DNA of 64,000 nt from Escherichia coli. GTDB taxonomy: Bacteria > Pseudomonadota > Gammaproteobacteria > Enterobacterales > Enterobacteriaceae. The notes below the pieces were generated by a model, which was not told the origin of the DNA, ran no database searches, and saw only the letters and a list, made by a program, of their open reading frames with translations. Position 1 is the first letter of the stretch, and each line of letters begins with the position of its first letter. The stretch is taken from assembly GCF_003019035.1 (NCBI RefSeq), contig NZ_CP027447.1. One strand, 5' to 3'. Below, piece after piece: positions 20,496-40,435 of this stretch. The translations under genes and the position numbers were made by a program.

Positions 20496-21971
20496 TTACT
20501 CCCTGTCTAACCGGCCAACCAGGGAAAGCTCAAAGTTTGCCCCCATAAATTTAAAATGGGGCCGCACGCTCAGCGCGACCTGGTACCAGCCGGGTTCGCC
20601 TTCCACATCCATAACCTCAACTTTGGCAGCGCGCAGAGGTTTACGGCTGCGCACGTCCGCAGGCGGGTTTTCCTGGTCGGCAACATACTGACGGATCCAG
20701 GTATTAAGCTCTCTTTCTAAGTCGCTCCTTTCTTTCCATGACCCCAGTTGTTCACGCTGCAACACCTTGATGTAGTGCGCTAACCGGTTGATGATGAAGA
20801 GATAAGGAAGCTGCGTACCCAGCTTATAGTTGGTTTCTGCGTCTTTGCCCGGAAAGTGCTTCGGTTTTTGTACCGAGTTTGCAGAGAAAAAGGCTGCATT
20901 ATCAGAGTCTTTACGCATGGTAAGGGTGATAAAACCCTCTTCAGCCAGTTCAAATTCGCGGCGATCGGTGACCAGCACCTCGGTTGGGATTTTGGCCTGA
21001 ATCTGACCCATCGTTTCGAACAGATGCACCGGCAGATCTTTCACTGCGCCGCCGCTTTGCGGACCGATGATATTTGGACACCAGCGGTATTTGGCAAAAC
21101 TGTCTGCGACATTGCACGCCAGCATCCAGGCCGTATTACCCCACAGATAATCTTCGTGGTTCCGGCTGACATCTTCGTGATAGTTAAAGTTCTTAACAGG
21201 GTTATCTGTTGGTGAATAAGGCTGGCGAAGCAGGAAGCGGGGTGCCGTAAGCCCTAAATAGCGCGAATCTTCCGAGTCACGCAGGGCGCGCCATTTGGTG
21301 TAGGCCGGACCTTCAAAGATGGCATAAAGATCTTTGATATTAGGCAGTTCGGTCCACGAGTTCAGCCCCATAAATTCCGGGGAAACGGAGGACAGGAACG
21401 GTGCGTGCGCCATTGCGCCCACGGCACTGACGTATTGCAGCAGTTTCATGTCAGGCGCGGTATTTTTGAACTCATAAGCGCCCAGCACGGCAGCGATGGG
21501 TTCACCGCCAAACTGTCCGAAACCGGACGAATAAACGTGCTTATAAAATCCGGACTGAATAATTTCTGGCGCAAACTCAAAGTCTTCCAGAAGTTCCTGC
21601 TTGGTGACATGAAGCACGTTGACCTTGATGTTTTCACGGAAATCAACGCGATCCACCATTGTTTTCAGTGAGCGCCAGAACGACTCGACCTGCTGAAAGG
21701 CAGGCGCATGGATGATGACATCCATCTGGCGGCTGATGCGTTCATCAATATCTGCAATCATGCTGTCCACGGCCAGTTTATTGACCGGTTCGGCAGATGC
21801 AGTGGATTGCAGGATGCTGGCAATAAAGGCTGTCACACCCTGGCGGGCAACGTCATAACCTTCCGAACCGGGCTGAATACGGGTCTGTGCCATGATTTGA
21901 TCAAGCAGCGACGATGCCTGCTCAGGCTGCCCGGCATGACTGGAAACGAGTTCCTCTTCCTGTAAAGACAT
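20496..21971 (-). CDS. tssC: T6SS sheath large subunit TssC (VipB)
   Basis: 491-aa ORF; conserved sheath protein, follows tssB. Confidence 0.9.
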   Translation of the reverse strand: MSLQEEELVSSHAGQPEQASSLLDQIMAQTRIQPGSEGYDVARQGVTAFIASILQSTASAEPVNKLAVDSMIADIDERISRQMDVIIHAPAFQQVESFWRSLKTMVDRVDFRENIKVNVLHVTKQELLEDFEFAPEIIQSGFYKHVYSSGFGQFGGEPIAAVLGAYEFKNTAPDMKLLQYVSAVGAMAHAPFLSSVSPEFMGLNSWTELPNIKDLYAIFEGPAYTKWRALRDSEDSRYLGLTAPRFLLRQPYSPTDNPVKNFNYHEDVSRNHEDYLWGNTAWMLACNVADSFAKYRWCPNIIGPQSGGAVKDLPVHLFETMGQIQAKIPTEVLVTDRREFELAEEGFITLTMRKDSDNAAFFSANSVQKPKHFPGKDAETNYKLGTQLPYLFIINRLAHYIKVLQREQLGSWKERSDLERELNTWIRQYVADQENPPADVRSRKPLRAAKVEVMDVEGEPGWYQVALSVRPHFKFMGANFELSLVGRLDRE

Positions 21972-22280
21972 ACTGAAAATCCTTCTGTTTTAGCTGTGTT
22001 TCTGAAACCGGCTTTTCGCCATCAGTGAAGTACGCGCTGCCAGTGCGACGCGCTCTGCTGAAACTCACAAAAATGGATAATCTCATCCAATAGATCACTG
22101 ATACGGCGATCCAGTGTTGTAATCAGCGCAGCCACACCATCCTGGTTGATTTCAACGGACGGGCTGAAACATACCTGGTAAACCACCTGCAGAATGTCTG
22201 CAACAGAGAGGTGGTATGTCCCGGAGATATTTTTGTGTGCCGTCATGCCTGGATAACCCTGTTTAATGAAATAGTGGTGG

Positions 22281-22781
22281 TTATTTATTGCTCACCCGGC
22301 CGATTTCTTTGAGCAACTGCTCGCGGGACTCCTCATTTTCCAACAATGCCTGGAGCTGGGTACGGAATGCCGGAAGGTTACCCATCGGCCCCTTCAGTGC
22401 AGTCAGTGCTTCACGCAGTTCCAGCAATTTATTCACTTCCGGAACCTGCCGGGCCACGCTATCTGGTGAAAAATCATCCAGTGATTTGATATTCAGCGCC
22501 ACATTCAGTTCATCGTCTGTTGTGCTTCCCTTCAGCGTGGCGGGGACAGTAAAATTGAGGCCAATGGCTGCTTCAGCCATCACTGCACCGAAATTGTGCT
22601 TGTTAACGGAAACTGCCTGACGTTCATCCAGTGGGGATGTTTCCTGCGTATTTCCGGTATCGCCGACAACGAGCATGTTAAGCGGAAGTTCCACTTCAGC
22701 CGTCTGGCCATCTGTTTTTGGGACATACGATATATTAATACGCTCGCGAGGCGCGACGCTGCCTTCAAATTTTTTGCTCAT
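22281..22781 (-). CDS. tssB: T6SS sheath small subunit TssB (VipA)
   Basis: 166-aa ORF starting MSKKFEGSVAPRERINISYVPKTDGQ; first gene of the minus-strand operon. Confidence 0.9.
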   Translation of the reverse strand: MSKKFEGSVAPRERINISYVPKTDGQTAEVELPLNMLVVGDTGNTQETSPLDERQAVSVNKHNFGAVMAEAAIGLNFTVPATLKGSTTDDELNVALNIKSLDDFSPDSVARQVPEVNKLLELREALTALKGPMGNLPAFRTQLQALLENEESREQLLKEIGRVSNK

Positions 22782-23477
22782 AAAAGTGATCCGTCATGTT
22801 ATCTCGTACAGGCCATGAACACGGCATATTTGTACCGAAAAAAAATATCGGCAATGCCGCCCTAATGGCGGTGAAAATAAAATCACCACTCCTTCATCAC
22901 CCCGCATTCTACGCTTCAAAATAAATAAGAAAAGGACTTTTTATCGATCGTAAAGAGGGGTATTCTGCAAGCGTTAAATAGATTGTGTGAACCTGTGCAA
23001 TTCGCGCCAGGTGTATTATGGCAATAATTTAAATATAGAGCTTTTATGTAACTTATTGAATTATATAATAATTTCATTAAACATAAGCTAATCTGATGAT
23101 TGCTTGTTTATATATTTGTTTTGTGATTGATTAAGTGGGTATTTTTAAGGAATATCTCAAAAATTATCAAAATGATAATTCAGAAAGGATAAATACAATA
23201 TTTATTCATGATTCAGCTTTGGCCATTTTATGGAGGCAATACGGACTTTGAACAGTTGGGTATGGTTATCCAGATATATATTATTAACTTATTGCTGAAT
23301 AAGAGATTTAATGATTTTAAAAATAGTTTTTACGACAACCGTAAATTCTAGCTCGGTTTGTATGTAAAAAATACTGAAAAATGATGCGGTTCCGTGAAGT
23401 GAGCTGCATCTGCCTGTCTGGGATTAACGGCAGGTCATTGTAAGTAGTAATTAACCACGTTAACAAGGAGTTTACAA
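22782..23477. promoter_or_regulatory. AT-rich divergent promoter region between tssB operon and hcp-vgrG-rhs operon; possible Fur-box-like site (23164-23183) and a single GATC (22946-22949)
   Basis: About 700 bp non-coding, roughly 30 percent GC, between divergently oriented operons; ttatcaaaatgataattcag resembles the Fur consensus GATAATGATAATCATTATC. Sites are by eye only. Confidence 0.4.
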
Positions 23478-23996
23478 ATGCCAACACCGTGTTATATCTC
23501 CATCACTGGTCAGACCCAGGGAAATATTACTGCAGGTGCATTTACCGCTGATTCTGTCGGCAACATCTATGTGCAGGGGCACGAAGACGAGATGCTGGTG
23601 CAGGAATTCCTGCATAACGTTACTGTCCCGACCGATCCTCAGTCCGGCCAGCCTGCGGGTCAGCGTGCTCACAAGCCGTTCATTTTTACCGTGGCGCTGA
23701 ACAAAGCTGTTCCGCTGATGTACAACGCACTGGCCTCCGGCGAAATGCTGCCAACCACTGAACTTCACTGGTGGCGTACCTCTGTGGAAGGCAAACAGGA
23801 GCATTATTTCACCACCCGCCTGACCGATTCGACGATTGTCGATATGAAACTGCATATGCCGCATTGCCAGGATCCGGCGAAACGCGAGTTCACCCAGTTG
23901 CTCGAAGTTTCACTGGCCTACCGCAAAATAGAGTGGGAACACGTCAAATCTGGCACCTCCGGTGCCGACGACTGGCGCGCACCGCTGGAAGCATAA
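23478..23996 (+). CDS. hcp: T6SS tube protein Hcp
   Basis: 172-aa ORF, RBS aaggag, Hcp-type N-terminus; followed by hairpin terminator. Confidence 0.9.
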   Translation: MPTPCYISITGQTQGNITAGAFTADSVGNIYVQGHEDEMLVQEFLHNVTVPTDPQSGQPAGQRAHKPFIFTVALNKAVPLMYNALASGEMLPTTELHWWRTSVEGKQEHYFTTRLTDSTIVDMKLHMPHCQDPAKREFTQLLEVSLAYRKIEWEHVKSGTSGADDWRAPLEA

Positions 23997-24007
23997 GTTA
24001 AGCCAAC

Positions 24008-24042
24008 AGCATCCGGCTATCAGGCCGGATGCTGTTTTTGTA
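24008..24042 (+). terminator. Rho-independent terminator/attenuator after hcp
   Basis: Inverted repeat aacagcatccggc ... gccggatgctgtt followed by TTTTT. Confidence 0.6.
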
Positions 24043-24205
24043 TTACGCCGTAAAAAGAAAGGTTGTCAGTAAGGGGTTACGTTCACGGGAGATGGCGGAT
24101 GCCGGAAACTTCGGCGGTAGCGTGCCTGAACGCAAGCGTAACACTGTACTGTTACAGCCGCTTTAACAGCGAACTGTCTGTTTTTCCTTAAACCCGGAGG
24201 TTGCT

Positions 24206-26314
24206 ATGTCAACCGGATTACGTTTCACGCTGGAAGTGGACGGCCTGCCACCGGACGCGTTTGCGGTGGTCTCCTTTCATCTGAACCAGTCACTCTCTTC
24301 GCTCTTTTCCCTCGATCTCTCTCTGGTCAGCCAGCAGTTTCTCTCCCTTGAATTTGCGCAGGTGCTGGACAAAATGGCCTACCTGACGGTATGGCAGGGC
24401 GATGACGTACAGCGCCGGGTGAAAGGTGTGGTGACCTGGTTTGAACTGGGGGAGAACGACAAAAACCAGATGCTGTACAGCATGAAGGTGTGCCCACCGC
24501 TGTGGCGCACAGGGCTGCGCCAGAACTTCCGTATCTTCCAGAATGAGGACATCGAAAGCATACTCGCGACGATCCTGAAAGAAAACGGGGTGACCGAGTG
24601 GAGTCCGCTGTTCAGCGAGCCGCATCCTTCCCGTGAGTTTTGTGTCCAGTACGGCGAAACCGATTACGATTTCCTGTGCCGGATGGCGGCGGAGGAAGGC
24701 ATCTTCTTTTATGAGGAGCACGCGCAAAAAAGTACCGACCAGAGCCTGGTCCTGTGCGACACCGTGCGTTATCTGCCGGAGTCCTTTGAGATCCCCTGGA
24801 ATCCGAACACCCGTACCGAGGTGAGCACCCTATGCATCAGCCAGTTCCTCTACAGCGCACAAATCCGCCCATCTTCCGTGGTGACCAAAGACTACACCTT
24901 TAAACGACCCGGCTGGGCAGGGCGTTTTGATCAGGAAGGCCAGCACCAGGATTACCAGCGCACACAGTATGAAGTGTATGACTACCCCGGACGTTTCAAG
25001 GGTGCCCACGGGCAGAACTTTGCCTGCTGGCAGATGGATGGCTGGCGAAACAACGCAGAAGTGGCGCGCGGAACAAGCCGTTCGCCGGAGATATGGCCGG
25101 GACGGCGAATTGCGCTGACGGGGCATCCGCAGGCGAACCTGAACCGGGAATGGCAGGTGGTGGCAAGTGAACTGCACGGCGAGCAGCCGCAGGCGGTGCC
25201 GGGACGCAGTGGTTCAGGTACCACGCTGAATAACCACTTTGCGGTAATACCGGCAGACAGAACATGGCGGCCACAGCCGTTGCTGAAACCGCTGGTGGAC
25301 GGCCCGCAGAGCGCCGTCGTGACGGGACCGGCAGGAGAAGAAATCTTCTGTGATGAACATGGCCGCGTGCGGGTGAAATTTAACTGGGACCGTTATAACC
25401 CGTCAAACCAGGACAGTTCATGCTGGATCCGTGTGGCACAGGCGTGGGCAGGCACCGGGTTTGGTAACCTGGCGATACCGCGTGTGGGTCAGGAGGTCAT
25501 TGTGGACTTCCTCAACGGCGATCCGGACCAGCCGATTATTATGGGGCGCACCTACCACCAGGAAAACCGCACCCCCGGCAGCCTGCCGGGAACAAAGACG
25601 CAAATGACCATTCGTTCAAAAACCTATAAGGGCAGCGGGTTTAATGAACTGAAGTTTGACGATGCGACAGGGAAAGAACAGGTCTACATCCACGCGCAGA
25701 AGAACATGAACACCGAGGTGCTGAATAACCGCACCACAGATGTGATAAACAACCATGCTGAGACCATCGGCAACAATCAGGTGATTGCGGTTACCAACAA
25801 TCAGATACAGACGGTGGGCGTTAACCAGATAGAGACGGTGGGCAGTAACCAGATCATTAAAGTGGGCTCTGTTCAGGTGGAAACGATTGGACTTGTTCGT
25901 GCGCTGACTGTGGGCGTGGCGTATCAGACGACGGTAGGTGGCATTATGAACACCTCGGTGGCCCTGATGCAGTCCTCGCAGATCGGTTTGCATAAATCGT
26001 TGATGGTCGGGCTGGGTTATGACGTCAAAGTCGGAAATAACGTTACCTTCACCGTTGGTAAAACGAAAAAGGATGATACCGGGCAGACCGCGATTTACTC
26101 CGCCGGTGAGCATCTGGAACTCTGCTGTGGTAAGGCAAGGCTGGTGCTGACTAAGGACGGACAAATTTTTCTCAACGGCACAAAAATTCATTTGCAGGGT
26201 AAGGAGCAGGTTAATGGTGACTCACTGTTGATTAACTGGAACTGTGCAGCCTCGAAATCCCCACCGAAGACCCCTGATGAAAAGCAGGATACGCCGGATA
26301 TGAGAGAGTACTGA
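24206..26314 (+). CDS. vgrG: T6SS spike protein VgrG (no C-terminal effector extension)
   Basis: 702-aa ORF, RBS ggagg; gp27/gp5-like region with repeated VxxNQ beta-helix motifs (NNQVIAVTNNQIQTVGVNQIETVGSNQIIKVGSVQ). Confidence 0.9.
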   Translation: MSTGLRFTLEVDGLPPDAFAVVSFHLNQSLSSLFSLDLSLVSQQFLSLEFAQVLDKMAYLTVWQGDDVQRRVKGVVTWFELGENDKNQMLYSMKVCPPLWRTGLRQNFRIFQNEDIESILATILKENGVTEWSPLFSEPHPSREFCVQYGETDYDFLCRMAAEEGIFFYEEHAQKSTDQSLVLCDTVRYLPESFEIPWNPNTRTEVSTLCISQFLYSAQIRPSSVVTKDYTFKRPGWAGRFDQEGQHQDYQRTQYEVYDYPGRFKGAHGQNFACWQMDGWRNNAEVARGTSRSPEIWPGRRIALTGHPQANLNREWQVVASELHGEQPQAVPGRSGSGTTLNNHFAVIPADRTWRPQPLLKPLVDGPQSAVVTGPAGEEIFCDEHGRVRVKFNWDRYNPSNQDSSCWIRVAQAWAGTGFGNLAIPRVGQEVIVDFLNGDPDQPIIMGRTYHQENRTPGSLPGTKTQMTIRSKTYKGSGFNELKFDDATGKEQVYIHAQKNMNTEVLNNRTTDVINNHAETIGNNQVIAVTNNQIQTVGVNQIETVGSNQIIKVGSVQVETIGLVRALTVGVAYQTTVGGIMNTSVALMQSSQIGLHKSLMVGLGYDVKVGNNVTFTVGKTKKDDTGQTAIYSAGEHLELCCGKARLVLTKDGQIFLNGTKIHLQGKEQVNGDSLLINWNCAASKSPPKTPDEKQDTPDMREY

Positions 26315-29989: not shown

Positions 29990-30598
29990 CGTCTGCCGGG
30001 GCAGCAGCATGATGAGGAGTCGGGGCTGTATTATAACCGGAACCGGTACTACAATCCGTTGCTGGGGAGGTATATTACCCAGGATCCAATTGGGCTGGAG
30101 GGGGGATGGAACCTGTATAATTACCCACTGAATCCGATAATAAGGATGGATCCTTTGGGTTTGTATAATTTATATCAATTATTATATGATGTTTGGCATG
30201 ATGATTCATATGGAACATCATCAATTGATATTACTGGCAGTGGAGATCTAATATCATTAGGTGGTCATGCAGGACTTGGCGTTGCGTTTGCTAAAAAGAA
30301 AGGTGAAATGTTATCTGATATTTGTATTTATGCTACAGCATGCGGACATGCAGGAATTGGTGGTGGGATAAATGCGGCTATCACATATTCTGAGACCAAG
30401 TCTTTACCTACATCGGGAGTCAGCAATTCAGTAGGTGTAACGGTTGGCGGCGGAGTTGGGGGGCATTTTGCGTATACTTATGTAGTGGATGTTGATAATC
30501 CAGAATCATCGACAGAATCTGTTGGTATCGGTGCAGGTGTTGACGCTTCAGTTATGACTCTGGCTTGTAGAACGTGGCAAGAATGCTGGGTCAATTAA
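29990..30598 (+). CDS. In-frame continuation of the Rhs gene after the TAG: end of conserved core (RLPGQQ...[10 protein letters not shown]...DPLGL) plus about 145-aa glycine-rich C-terminal toxin domain of unknown activity
   Basis: Same reading frame as 26381-29989 (both start at coordinate mod 3 = 2) with a single stop between; contains the Rhs core-end motif [44 protein letters not shown], then an AT-rich Gly-rich tail ([35 protein letters not shown]). Confidence 0.6.
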
Positions 30599-30609
30599 CA
30601 GGAGGAAAT

Positions 30610-31005
30610 ATGAAAGAATATATATTTTTAGTTTTATTTTTATTGTGTGGTTGTTCTCCAGTGGACATAGAGCCAGCTAGACAAGAAGTTAATATCTTTC
30701 GTGGTTTATATCAGACAGGAAAATACAGTGATATATATAAAATCACTTCAAGTGATTTTCAGACTGCCACATCTGAAAAAAAATTTATCGACATAATGAG
30801 CGAAGCAAAAGGAAAAGATCTTGGGACTTATAAAAAATCAACCCTTAAAACTGAAAAAATCACTCGCGGATTATTTTCAAACGATGAAATTACATTGATA
30901 TATTTCTCAGAATATTCAAAAAGAATTGTCCAAGAGGTTTTTGTGTTTAATGTTGAAGACAAAAAAGTAAAATTAAAAGGTTATAGGTATGATTCGATTA
31001 ATTAA
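30610..31005 (+). CDS. Small lipoprotein, putative cognate immunity protein for the Rhs C-terminal domain
   Basis: 131-aa ORF from ATG with RBS aggagg 5 bp upstream; signal peptide with cysteine (FLVLFLLCGCSP); AT-rich; starts 12 bp after the Rhs tip stop. Confidence 0.55.
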   Translation: MKEYIFLVLFLLCGCSPVDIEPARQEVNIFRGLYQTGKYSDIYKITSSDFQTATSEKKFIDIMSEAKGKDLGTYKKSTLKTEKITRGLFSNDEITLIYFSEYSKRIVQEVFVFNVEDKKVKLKGYRYDSIN

Positions 31006-31099
31006 ATTTTTTGATGATGACTTCAATTAGTAGAACATGTATTTTTCGATAAAAGCACCGATGACTTTTTCATGAAGTTCTACAGAGCGCGAGAAACAG

Positions 31100-32450
31100 A
31101 TGGTTCTGCGAGTCAGACGTTTGATTCAGGTTCTCAGGGGCAGATTCAGGGACAGGGAAAGATCATCAGAAGTTCACTTTTTGCACTAAATAATTCGCAT
31201 TTTATGTTTAAAAATTGAGATATTTCTCATTACCTGAAACTGTTTTTTTATTGCTTATACATGATCAAATACTCCTTACATAATTAAGGAGAACAAAATG
31301 GAACTTAAAAAATTGATGGAACATATTTCTGTTATCCCCGATTACAGACAAGCCTGGAAAGTGGAACATAAATTATCGGATATTCTACTGTTGACTATTT
31401 GTGCCGTTATTTCGGGTGCAGAAGGCTGGGAAGATATAGAGGATTTTGGGGAAACACATCTCGATTTTTTGAAGCAATATGGTGATTTTGATAATGGTAT
31501 TCCTGTTCACGATACCATTGCCAGAGTTGTATCCTGTATCAGTCCTGCAAAATTTCACGAGTGCTTTATTAACTGGATGCGTGACTGCCATTCTTCAGAT
31601 GATAAAGACGTCATCGCAATTGATGGAAAAACACTCCGGCATTCTTATGACAAGAGTCGCCGCAGGGGAGCGATTCATGTCATTAGTGCGTTCTCAACAA
31701 TGCACAGTCTGGTCATCGGACAGATCAGGACGGATGAGAAATCCAATGAGATTACAGCTATCCCTGAACTTCTTAACATGGTGGATATTAAAGGAAAAAT
31801 CATCACAACTGATGCGATGGGTTGCCAGAAAGATATAGCAGAGAAGATACAAAAACAGGGCGGTGATTATTTATTCGCTGTAAAAGGAAATCAGGGTCGG
31901 CTAAATAAAGCCTTTGAGGAAAAATTCCCACTGAAAGAATTAAATAATCCAGAACATGACAGTTACGCAATTAGTGAAAAGAGTCACGGCAGAGAAGAAA
32001 TCCGTCTTCACATTGTTTGCGATGTCCCTGATGAACTTATTGATTTCACGTTTGAATGGAAAGGTCTGAAGAAATTATGCGTGGCAGTCTCCTTTCGGTC
32101 AATAATAGCAGAACAAAAGAAAGAGCCCGAAATGACGGTCAGATATTATATCAGTTCTGCTGATTTAACCGCAGAGAAGTTCGCCACAGCAATCCGAAAC
32201 CACTGGCACGTGGAGAATAAGCTGCACTGGCGTCTGGACGTGGTAATGAATGAAGACGACTGCAAAATAAGAAGAGGAAATGCAGCAGAATTATTTTCAG
32301 GGATACGGCACATCGCTATTAATATTTTAACGAATGATAAGGTATTCAAGGCAGGGTTAAGACGTAAGATGCGAAAAGCAGCCATGGACAGAAACTACCT
32401 GGCGTCAGTCCTTGCGGGGAGCGGGCTTTCGTAATCTTGCCCTGACCCGT
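31100..32450 (+). mobile_element. H-repeat / ISAs1-family insertion sequence at the distal end of the Rhs element (boundaries approximate)
   Basis: Contains the 378-aa H-repeat-associated transposase ORF; exact inverted-repeat ends not resolved by eye. Confidence 0.45.
31298..32434 (+). CDS. ISAs1-family transposase (H-repeat-associated protein)
   Basis: 378-aa ORF, RBS aaggag; DDE-type transposase typically found 3' of rhs genes in E. coli. Confidence 0.8.
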
Positions 32451-38934: not shown

Positions 38935-39213
38935 TTACCCAAAGAGCGCCGCGTGAGTTCCAGTTCTCTCAAATCGTAAAAGTTTATCGGTAAGTTTGTA
39001 AATCAGGATCCAGTCCGGTTCGACATGAGCATCGCGATAACCTTTCCATGAACCTTGCAGCGGGTGGTCTTTATAAACAGCTGGAAGCAGTAAAGTATTA
39101 TTGATAAGAAGCGTCATAAGATATTTCAATTTATTCATATCCTTATGACGCTTTTGTGCAAGTTTTACATCCTTTGAAAATTGTCCCGAGTATTCAATAT
39201 CCCTTTGAATCAT
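38935..39213 (-). CDS. yafQ: Type II toxin YafQ (RelE-family mRNA interferase)
   Basis: 92-aa ORF immediately downstream of dinJ; classic antitoxin-toxin order. Confidence 0.9.
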   Translation of the reverse strand: MIQRDIEYSGQFSKDVKLAQKRHKDMNKLKYLMTLLINNTLLLPAVYKDHPLQGSWKGYRDAHVEPDWILIYKLTDKLLRFERTGTHAALFG

Positions 39214-39215
39214 AT

Positions 39216-39476
39216 TTAAATTCCTAATTTATCAAATAAATCATCGGCGTCTTTGGCCTTATGAACACCAACGCCAGCTTCGCTGTTTTTGATTGATTGA
39301 ATAGTTAATTGATTAGGCTCGCGTAAATCAAACGGCAATGCCTTTTCACGCGCGACTTTTGTGAGGGTTATGCGAACCAGGTCAGAGATGGTCAGCCCCA
39401 TCCCGGCCAGTACGTCCGCCGCCTGATTCTTCAGATCTTCATCGATTCGGGCGCGAACAAACGCGTTAGCAGCCAT
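39216..39476 (-). CDS. dinJ: Antitoxin DinJ
   Basis: 86-aa ORF, RBS aggag; precedes yafQ by 2 bp; LexA box directly upstream. Confidence 0.9.
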   Translation of the reverse strand: MAANAFVRARIDEDLKNQAADVLAGMGLTISDLVRITLTKVAREKALPFDLREPNQLTIQSIKNSEAGVGVHKAKDADDLFDKLGI

Positions 39477-39492
39477 TGGGGTATCTCCTGTG

Positions 39493-39508
39493 CTGTATAT
39501 TTATTCAG
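39493..39508. promoter_or_regulatory. LexA (SOS) box in dinJ promoter
   Basis: CTGTATATTTATTCAG matches CTGT-N8-ACAG with one mismatch, located just upstream of the dinJ RBS. Confidence 0.7.
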
Positions 39509-39685
39509 CTTGAATTGTAGCTCAAATGAGCAACAGCGACAATCCATGAGTAATTTAATAAACGGATGTTTTTACATAATTAACTGAAATATATTTATTA
39601 ATTTTATAATAATGGTTTATTAAGTTTGTTCAGGTACGGGCCGGGATACACTGCAACATCAATGCATGACCAGCCATTATTGAGA

Positions 39686-40435
39686 ATGTCTTTGCCGTCG
39701 ATTCCCTCTTTTGTGTTGTCGGGATTATTGTTGCTTTGCTTGCCGTTTTCTTCATTTGCCAGCGCCACCACATCACATATCTCTTTCAGCTACGCCGCCC
39801 GCCAGCGGATGCAAAACCGTGCGCGTTTATTAAAACAGTACCAAACCCATCTGAAAAAACAGGCCAGCTATATTGTGGAAGGCAATGCCGAAAGCAGAAA
39901 GGCGCTGCGCCAGCACAACCGCGAACAGATAAAACAGCATCCAGAATGGTTTCCTGCGCCGCTCAAGGCGAGTGACAGACGCTGGCAGGCGCTGGCGGAG
40001 AACAACCATTTCTTAAGCAGCGACCATCTACACAACATCACCGAAGTGGCGATTCACCGCCTGGAGCAGCAGCTTGGCAAGCCTTACGTCTGGGGCGGCA
40101 CGCGGCCCGATCAAGGCTTCGACTGTAGCGGGTTGGTTTTTTATGCCTACAACAAGATCCTCGAGGCGAAACTCCCGCGCACGGCTAATGAGATGTATCA
40201 CTACCATCGGGCAACGATTGTGGCGAATAACGACCTGCGCCGGGGAGATTTGCTGTTTTTCCATATTCACAGCCGCGAGATAGCCGATCATATGGGGGTG
40301 TATCTGGGAGACGGTCAGTTTATCGAGTCACCACGTACCGGCGAAACCATTCGGATAAGCCGGTTAGCTGAACCTTTCTGGCAGGATCATTTTTTAGGCG
40401 CGCGGCGGATTTTGACGGAAGAGACGATTTTGTAG
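39686..40435 (+). CDS. yafL: NlpC/P60-family lipoprotein YafL
   Basis: Start at MSLPSIPSFVLSGLLLLCLPFSS; NlpC/P60 catalytic motifs (GFDCSGLVFYAY ... DHMGVYLGDGQFIESP). Confidence 0.85.
   Translation: MSLPSIPSFVLSGLLLLCLPFSSFASATTSHISFSYAARQRMQNRARLLKQYQTHLKKQASYIVEGNAESRKALRQHNREQIKQHPEWFPAPLKASDRRWQALAENNHFLSSDHLHNITEVAIHRLEQQLGKPYVWGGTRPDQGFDCSGLVFYAYNKILEAKLPRTANEMYHYHRATIVANNDLRRGDLLFFHIHSREIADHMGVYLGDGQFIESPRTGETIRISRLAEPFWQDHFLGARRILTEETIL

Follow-up and report, generated by a model that had tools for sequence, protein, structure and literature searches.

The question raised by this locus is what controls the long AT-rich spacer between the divergent genes tssB and hcp of an Escherichia coli T6SS. 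A sequence-only reading of the window, meaning here the whole stretch of 64,000 nucleotides that was analysed, had pointed to a Fur-box-like sequence and a GATC within the spacer and proposed control by Fur and Dam methylation as in a T6SS of enteroaggregative E. coli, with H-NS silencing or a small RNA as further ideas. The answer concerns T6SS-2, the commonest T6SS in E. coli, whose silence in the laboratory has blocked functional study in EHEC and other pathotypes.

Pfam profile matches placed tssB at 22281-22781 on the minus strand (PF05591, E=1e-51) and hcp at 23478-23996 on the plus strand (PF05638, E=5e-31), with tssC, tssE and tssF to the left of tssB and vgrG and the gene of an Rhs protein to the right of hcp. 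The spacer between the two divergent genes is exactly 22782-23477, a length of 696 bp. Strain SCU-301 carries an identical copy (100%), and an identity of 95% or more was observed in 2,228 of 5,426 complete E. coli genomes (roughly 41%), with a single copy each time. The RefSeq gene order in SCU-301 is hcp, vasL, tssM, tssA, vasI, tssH, tssL, tssK, tssJ, tagH, tssG, tssF, tssE, tssC, a hypothetical gene and tssB, with hcp, vgrG and rhs on the divergent side of the spacer, and the annotated cluster adjoins yafV-ivy-fadE. The same arrangement was observed in O157:H7 Sakai at ECs_0233/ECs_0234, where a spacer of 696 bp at 263.4-264.1 kb is 97% identical to that of the window over 695 aligned bases. 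The substitutions are at strain level only and for the most part affect the AT-rich core and the leader of tssB, while the Fur-like stretch (identity spans 23138-23210) and the hcp leader are identical. The Pfam assignments, the RefSeq annotation of a strain with a 100% identical spacer and the presence of the same spacer in O157 Sakai identify the locus in this E. coli DNA as the aspV/yafV-linked T6SS-2, a vas-type cluster with a Vibrio-like vas gene order.

22782-23477, no strand: tssB-hcp intergenic region, the divergent promoter region "t6sP" of E. coli T6SS-2, as identified from its Pfam-assigned flanks, its identity to O157 Sakai and published work on EDL933.

The spacer is the same element as t6sP of EHEC EDL933 (z0264/tssB to hcp3; PMC13141884, PMC5363993), with which it shares its flanks, the aspV/yafV locus and the length of 696 bp. 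It is accordingly already published as the H-NS-repressed divergent promoter of T6SS-2, an ordinary one, and the main reading given here contains nothing new. Papers dedicated to this control region include those of 2017 (PMC5363993), 2022 (Kim, Lee & Yoon, J Microbiol 60:928) and 2026 (PMC13141884). The sole addition made here consists of conserved blocks mapped by comparison of orthologous spacers, together with a covarying GGA hairpin in the hcp leader, which would provide a testable site for a reported effect of CsrA.

The spacer had been described from the letters of the DNA as a large AT-rich region of about 700 bp with a GC content near 30%, and this description held, its coordinates being exact and the size being kept in orthologues. 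GC content is 33.3% as compared to 53.9% for the window and drops to 23.5% in the lowest 200-bp windows. The interval 23000-23340 has 26.1% GC and makes up most of the following feature.

22990-23345, no strand: AT-rich core of about 26% GC in the composition profile, a putative platform for H-NS nucleation and spreading.

Orthologous spacers were compared from E. albertii, the E. coli L003 allele (a rare second allele found in 29 genomes), the APEC O1/042 allele (same aspV locus, 83-85% nucleotide identity in hcp, roughly 581 genomes), Yokenella regensburgei and Citrobacter youngae. A genome-wide search for tssB relatives gave only 4 loci, and hcp contexts were added through protein homologues. 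The orthologous tssB-hcp spacers measure 635-705 bp at 29-34% GC and are just 50-70% identical to that of the window. As length and AT-richness are kept despite this low identity, the long AT-rich spacer is a conserved property of this T6SS lineage. In remoter relatives the spacer spans 567-581 bp (C. koseri group) or 280 bp. Conservation is poor across the central 350 bp, and leader elements by both start codons are conserved in all seven spacers.

H-NS silencing had been put forward as a secondary idea, and it is what published EHEC experiments on this 97%-identical locus show (PMC5363993, PMC13141884). The T6SS of EDL933 is essentially silent in vitro, deletion of hns raises expression of z0254 (clpV), z0264 (tssB, 60-fold) and z0267 (vgrG), and the same three genes are induced 8- to 40-fold in macrophages (PMC5363993). 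As z0264 is tssB (PMC13141884), the loss of hns affects genes on either side of the spacer. When placed between gfp and mCherry, t6sP was derepressed in both directions by hns deletion (PMC13141884). The same paper devotes one sentence to binding of H-NS between hcp3 and tssB, for which it credits Wan 2017 and Kim 2022, and one to the presence of several TSSs in the z0264/z0265 divergent promoter, with reference to Kim et al. 2022. The high-affinity H-NS motif TCGATAAATT is matched at 8/10 or better four times in the spacer, three of these matches being in the AT-rich core (at 23050, 23161 and 23225). This corresponds to 5.7 matches per kb as compared to 1.1 per kb in the window outside the spacer, a roughly fivefold enrichment that is weak evidence and depends on composition. 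AT-richness and motif density should thus be read as permissive for H-NS and not as specific evidence for it.

We consider it highly probable that the spacer is the divergent promoter and leader region of T6SS-2, silenced mainly by H-NS, with leaders that may be subject to post-transcriptional control and with Fur and Dam outside the mechanism. The leftward promoter would drive the long structural operon from tssB and tssC onward to hcp2A and the rightward promoter the hcp-vgrG-rhs effector operon. Xenogeneic silencing is the main control, as published for the 97%-identical EHEC sequence: H-NS on the AT-rich spacer keeps both promoters off in the laboratory, and transcription rises upon hns deletion or inside macrophages. 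Deletion of hns led to weak promoter activity and little protein, and T6SS proteins appeared solely in DMEM or MM9 and not in LB (PMC13141884). As deletion alone is insufficient for protein, H-NS is not the whole story. Further layers exist beyond it, with an activator or anti-silencer still missing from the scheme, and the long structured 5' leaders (predicted lengths: tssB, roughly 120-175 nt; hcp, 65 nt or more) suggest a post-transcriptional layer that would most plausibly consist of CsrA acting on the hcp leader.

Related systems show similar behaviour. The vipA2-hcp2B region of APEC/NMEC (phylogroup B2; PMC5874247, PMC6534853) is orthologous, lies at the same aspV locus and is likewise divergent, with a spacer of roughly 705 bp and 31% GC. 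In APEC, hns deletion derepresses both operons of this diverged T6SS-2 allele (PMC5874247), so that APEC T6SS2 is H-NS-repressed like T6SS-2 in EHEC; the APEC system is Fur-independent (PMC5874247). The APEC spacer differs from that of the window in having only 57% identity, no Fur-like palindrome and a CpxR site of its own, and the cargo is DUF2169-PAAR in place of Rhs. Since the APEC spacer is 57% identical and lacks the Fur-like site, results from APEC bear on the system and not on the exact sequence of the window. The SPI-6 T6SS of Salmonella, as cited in PMC5363993 from Brunet et al. 2015, is likewise an acquired island at aspV with AT-rich promoters silenced by H-NS, a likeness that is taken from the literature; its T6SS subtype and gene order differ from those of E. 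coli T6SS-2.

Conserved blocks in the aligned spacers were used to place candidate promoters on both sides of the region. A scan with consensus promoter elements gave 5 promoter-like matches as compared to 3.5 expected. The hexamers that fall in conserved blocks are the following.

22906-22911, minus strand: candidate tssB -10 element TAGAAT with an implied leader of roughly 118 nt, in a CATT(C/T)TAC block that is near-invariant in seven spacers (one substitution, in APEC O1).

22962-22967, minus strand: second candidate tssB -10 element CAGAAT (TTCACA-18-CAGAAT), suggested by the promoter scan and by a block GTAT.(C/A)T.C present in all seven spacers.

23194-23199, plus strand: candidate distal hcp -10 element TACAAT in a conserved block, with ATGATA 16 nt before it.

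The block TA(C/T)AAT.A..ATTCATG, to which the candidate hcp element belongs, is conserved better than any other element of the central region in the seven spacers, and its equivalent in the L003 allele reads GTGACA-16-TATAAT. We infer from this conservation that the hexamers are candidate promoters. A hcp promoter of the sigma-54/VasH type, after the Vibrio cholerae model, was considered and rejected, as no -24/-12 element (TGGCAC-N5-TTGCW, allowing up to 3 mismatches) was matched within 22782-23477 and no vasH-like activator is annotated by RefSeq in the T6SS cluster.

The putative mRNA leaders on either side contain predicted structures, of which one in the hcp leader showed covariation.

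23412-23435, plus strand: conserved stem-loop of the hcp 5' leader, supported by covariation, with an 8-bp stem and a loop GGGAUUAA that carries GGA.

23465-23470, plus strand: hcp Shine-Dalgarno sequence AAGGAG, 7 nt before the ATG and invariant in all aligned spacers, with a second GGA at 23467-23469.

23383-23410, plus strand: first hairpin of the hcp 5' leader, predicted in Escherichia alleles only, with allele changes that appear pairing-compatible by eye.

22812-22869, minus strand: long hairpin of the tssB 5' leader closed by GCCAU/AUGGC, predicted by RNA folding.

In six alleles or species, 93.8% of the base-pair cells of the 23412-23435 stem were paired and three pairs carried compensatory changes, whereas registers slid by 1-3 positions were paired at 29-46%. 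Shuffle controls were exceeded only moderately (15-39 of 500), and this figure refers to six sequences. Several of the pairs are G.U, which argues that the structured molecule is the plus-strand RNA, that is the hcp mRNA leader, so that transcription of hcp has to begin upstream of 23412. The stem-loop is absent from the unrelated leaders of the C. koseri group, Enterobacter and the Salmonella orphan hcp, which limits the hairpin to the Escherichia/Yokenella/C. youngae clade. On the tssB side, the segment 22770-22905 of the minus strand folded at -42.4 kcal/mol (z=-2.77), and the long hairpin was predicted in the Sakai, L003 and APEC O1 alleles and not in E. albertii.

A GGA lies in the loop of the hcp stem-loop or at its 5' edge in all six sequences and is found here at 23421-23423. 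The Shine-Dalgarno GGA follows 46 nt downstream, within the 10-63 nt of a two-site CsrA arrangement. For EHEC, PMC13141884 cites Wang et al. 2017 for a transcriptome in which hcp3 and tssC were reported to be CsrA-repressed. The stem-loop is thus a candidate CsrA site and should be regarded as a lead and not as a finding. The hcp leader resembles RsmA/CsrA-controlled leaders of T6SS mRNAs, such as those reported for RsmA of P. aeruginosa by Allsopp et al. 2017, in pairing a hairpin-loop GGA with a Shine-Dalgarno GGA, the classic two-site arrangement; in the present case both the hairpin and the 46-nt spacing are derived from six sequences and the CsrA site is putative. A clamp in which a CsrA dimer bridges the two GGA sites, blocks hcp translation and so provides the missing post-transcriptional lock is possible but doubtful. 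If true, it would explain why T6SS-2 mRNA rises with almost no protein in hns-deleted EHEC until the medium is changed.

One alternative is that Fur, with or without Dam, represses hcp, tssB or both through 23162-23206 in a manner similar to sci1, perhaps as a second layer under H-NS. The sites that had prompted this idea are present where they were reported, the Fur-box-like sequence at 23164-23183 and the GATC at 22946-22949, and each has a second counterpart in the spacer. The Fur-box-like sequence reads TTATCAAAATGATAATTCAG and sits in a perfect 8-3-8 palindrome.

23162-23180, no strand: perfect palindrome AATTATCAaaaTGATAATT holding the Fur-like site, 12/19 to the Fur consensus, which overlaps the -35-like ATGATA at 23172-23177.

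23188-23206, plus strand: second match to the Fur consensus, 13/19, GATAAATACAATATTTATT, which overlaps the candidate distal hcp -10 element TACAAT at 23194-23199.

22946-22949, no strand: the GATC reported earlier, 216 bp from the Fur-like site.

22788-22791, no strand: a second GATC, missed earlier, 7 nt upstream of the tssB start in the ribosome-binding region GGATCA.

The two Fur matches overlap the best candidate -35 and -10 elements of the conserved block that is the putative hcp promoter. The validated Fur boxes of sci1 in EAEC 042 score no better, at 13/19 and 11/19 (PMC3145626), and for this reason the match count by itself neither proves nor excludes binding of Fur. In hns-deleted EHEC, T6SS proteins depended on DMEM or MM9 (PMC13141884), media taken as iron-poor, which would fit a response to iron.

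The significance that had been attached to these sites was nevertheless lost against a chance control of 1000 dinucleotide-preserving shuffles of the spacer. A score of 12/19 was reached by 90% of shuffles and 13/19 by 39%, and the 2 GATC observed compare to 1.76 expected, with 52% of shuffles having at least 2. A perfect palindrome of the 23162-23180 type was present in 15% of shuffles. Its half-sites face outward (ATTATCA-N3-TGATAAT), unlike the 7-1-7 arrangement of Fur. An intact palindrome was observed solely in the main allele of E. coli. The right arm reads TGAGATTA in E. albertii and TGACAATT in the L003 allele, and the aligned spacers of APEC O1, Yokenella and C. youngae contain no counterpart. 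None of the other alleles, that of E. albertii included, retains the GATC at 22946, and that at 22788 is kept in E. albertii alone. Within 22782-23477 there is no cluster of GATC and none in or near the Fur-like site.

Fur binding data point in the same direction. In O157 Sakai, which is identical over the Fur-like stretch, Fur ChIP-exo gave no peak between 193,075 (dapD) and 288,115 (dinB) under either iron-replete or iron-starved conditions, and neither ECs0233 nor ECs0234 appears in the supplementary tables of the Fur pan-regulon (PMC10164565). Strain 042, which has the APEC-type T6SS-2 allele at 263,117-263,818, likewise showed no peak over 194-330 kb. The sci1 locus of 042 served as positive control in the same ChIP-exo with mixed results: peaks were present at 770 bp upstream of tssB as well as in the hcp-tssH interval, but the validated sci1 Fur boxes themselves had none. 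The sensitivity of Fur ChIP-exo for weak boxes is therefore imperfect, the negatives are not absolute, and that from Sakai was given less weight. In APEC T6SS2, iron limitation and Fur were without effect, though on a diverged allele (PMC5874247), and a published scan of t6sP for transcription-factor sites does not list Fur (PMC13141884).

The comparison with sci1 itself shows how far the analogy reaches. Both regions lie upstream of a tssB-led T6SS operon and have nominally comparable Fur matches (11-13/19 in sci1 and 12-13/19 in the window). However, sci1 is a T6SS-1 with a unidirectional promoter, while the window holds a divergent T6SS-2 promoter; sci1 has three GATC in 53 nt, one of them in a Fur box at the -10 element, an arrangement in which Fur binding and Dam methylation are mutually exclusive, as compared to two in 696 bp here. 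Fur binding and a response to iron have been shown for sci1 (PMC3145626), whereas Fur ChIP-exo was negative at this locus in Sakai. The proposed transfer of the Fur and Dam logic accordingly fails on the 216 bp between the box and its GATC, the lack of a GATC cluster, matches that are at chance level and not conserved, the missing Sakai peak and the different T6SS type. Repression by Fur is hence improbable, conceivable at most as a minor second layer, and the available evidence gives neither Fur nor Dam a part in the mechanism. Reading the spacer as an H-NS-silenced promoter and not as a Fur/Dam switch directs further work to anti-silencers and leader control and away from iron and methylation. 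One other Fur ChIP-exo peak, in KO11FL at 29 kb from pepD, was considered as a T6SS peak and rejected, as it lies in the Flag-2 locus.

The idea that envelope stress, through CpxR, is the principal activating signal of the hcp promoter, as for hcp2B in APEC, likewise has a small chance of being correct. In APEC DE719, CpxR-P binds GTAAA(N4-8)GTAAA roughly 200 bp upstream of the hcp2B ATG and activates the hcp2B operon only (PMC6534853), and GTAAA pentamers are present in the equivalent region of the window at 23342 and 23365. These are, however, 18 nt apart and outside the N4-8 range, and the CpxR segment defined by primers, AGCTTATGTAATCGTGTTCTGAA, falls within an insertion specific to APEC in the alignment, the APEC allele being just 57% identical. 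The effect of CpxR was shown on the APEC allele and would extend to that of the window by analogy.

An independent small RNA or small protein encoded in the spacer, which would account for its long, conserved length and the several TSSs reported for t6sP (PMC13141884, citing Kim et al. 2022) and would agree with stable folding of the leader segments on both sides, is very improbable, given that an Rfam scan of 21800-24300 at permissive E-values gave only noise (best spacer match E=1.6, to a eukaryotic snoRNA model), that a consensus scan found no intrinsic terminator inside the spacer, that the central 350 bp are poorly conserved, that the longest hcp-sense ORF (47 aa, 23208-23351) is broken by stop codons in E. 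albertii and L003, leaving the earlier small-RNA proposal with no conserved ORF, and that the conserved structures abut the starts of tssB and hcp as expected of mRNA leaders. In a repeat search, just short matches were observed, as expected for AT-rich DNA.

Comparison of the T6SS-2 control region across E. coli revealed three strongly diverged alleles. The main allele, which is that of the window and of O157:H7, was found in 2,228 genomes, and the control regions of the other two are located as follows:

L009 2796-3500, control region of the APEC O1/042 allele in APEC O1
L017 23117-23818, control region of the APEC O1/042 allele in 042
L003 5492-6173, control region of the third allele

The APEC O1/042 allele occupies the same aspV locus as the main allele, but the two share only 57% identity across the spacer as compared to roughly 85% in hcp. 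The third allele is rare and lies at a different chromosomal position in 29 genomes, all sharing 99.9% identity or more. Divergence is much faster in the spacer than in the genes flanking it, while its length and AT content are kept.

Two features on either side of tssB were also compared between the alleles:

22812-22869, minus strand, long hairpin predicted in the tssB 5' leader, closed by the stem GCCAU/AUGGC
22022-22246, minus strand, 74-aa ORF between tssC and tssB

The 136-nt fold that contains the hairpin has a predicted free energy of -42.4 kcal/mol (z=-2.77), and eight consecutive U residues are found in the apical loop. The hairpin recurs in the predictions for the Sakai, L003 and APEC O1 alleles; a hairpin of this type was not predicted in the tssB leader of E. 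albertii. The 74-aa ORF corresponds to the RefSeq entry WP_000123970.1, labelled as a hypothetical protein, and had no match in Pfam. It is carried by the main allele of E. coli and O157 and is missing from the APEC O1/042 and L003 alleles, in which the gap between tssB and tssC is only about 20 bp.

The Fur ChIP-exo peaks of EAEC 042 (PMC10164565, Dataset 2, strain 042 sheet) were inspected at sci1, the T6SS-1 cluster of this strain, whose Fur boxes have been validated by experiment. No peak in this list falls on these boxes, just 5' of tssB (4,852,875), the closest peaks being at 4,852,105 and at 4,859,253, the latter between hcp and tssH (PMC10164565). As validated boxes are without a peak, absence from this dataset is therefore not proof of absence.

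Downstream of hcp lies the counterpart of 'h3R', an element described in a 2026 paper (PMC13141884):

23997-24205, hcp-vgrG spacer, 209 bp

The element is reported to uncouple vgrG from hcp and to comprise, besides the leader of vgrG, both a terminator and an internal promoter (PMC13141884). Within the spacer, a weak and partial Rfam match (24004-24033, E=1.4) is probably just the terminator-like hairpin.

Further islands below 35% GC are present in the window at approximately 250-650, 1250-2100, 2450-2700, 30150-31400 and 39050-39750, some close to the Rhs region and others at the T6SS cluster's far end. These would be additional candidate H-NS targets.
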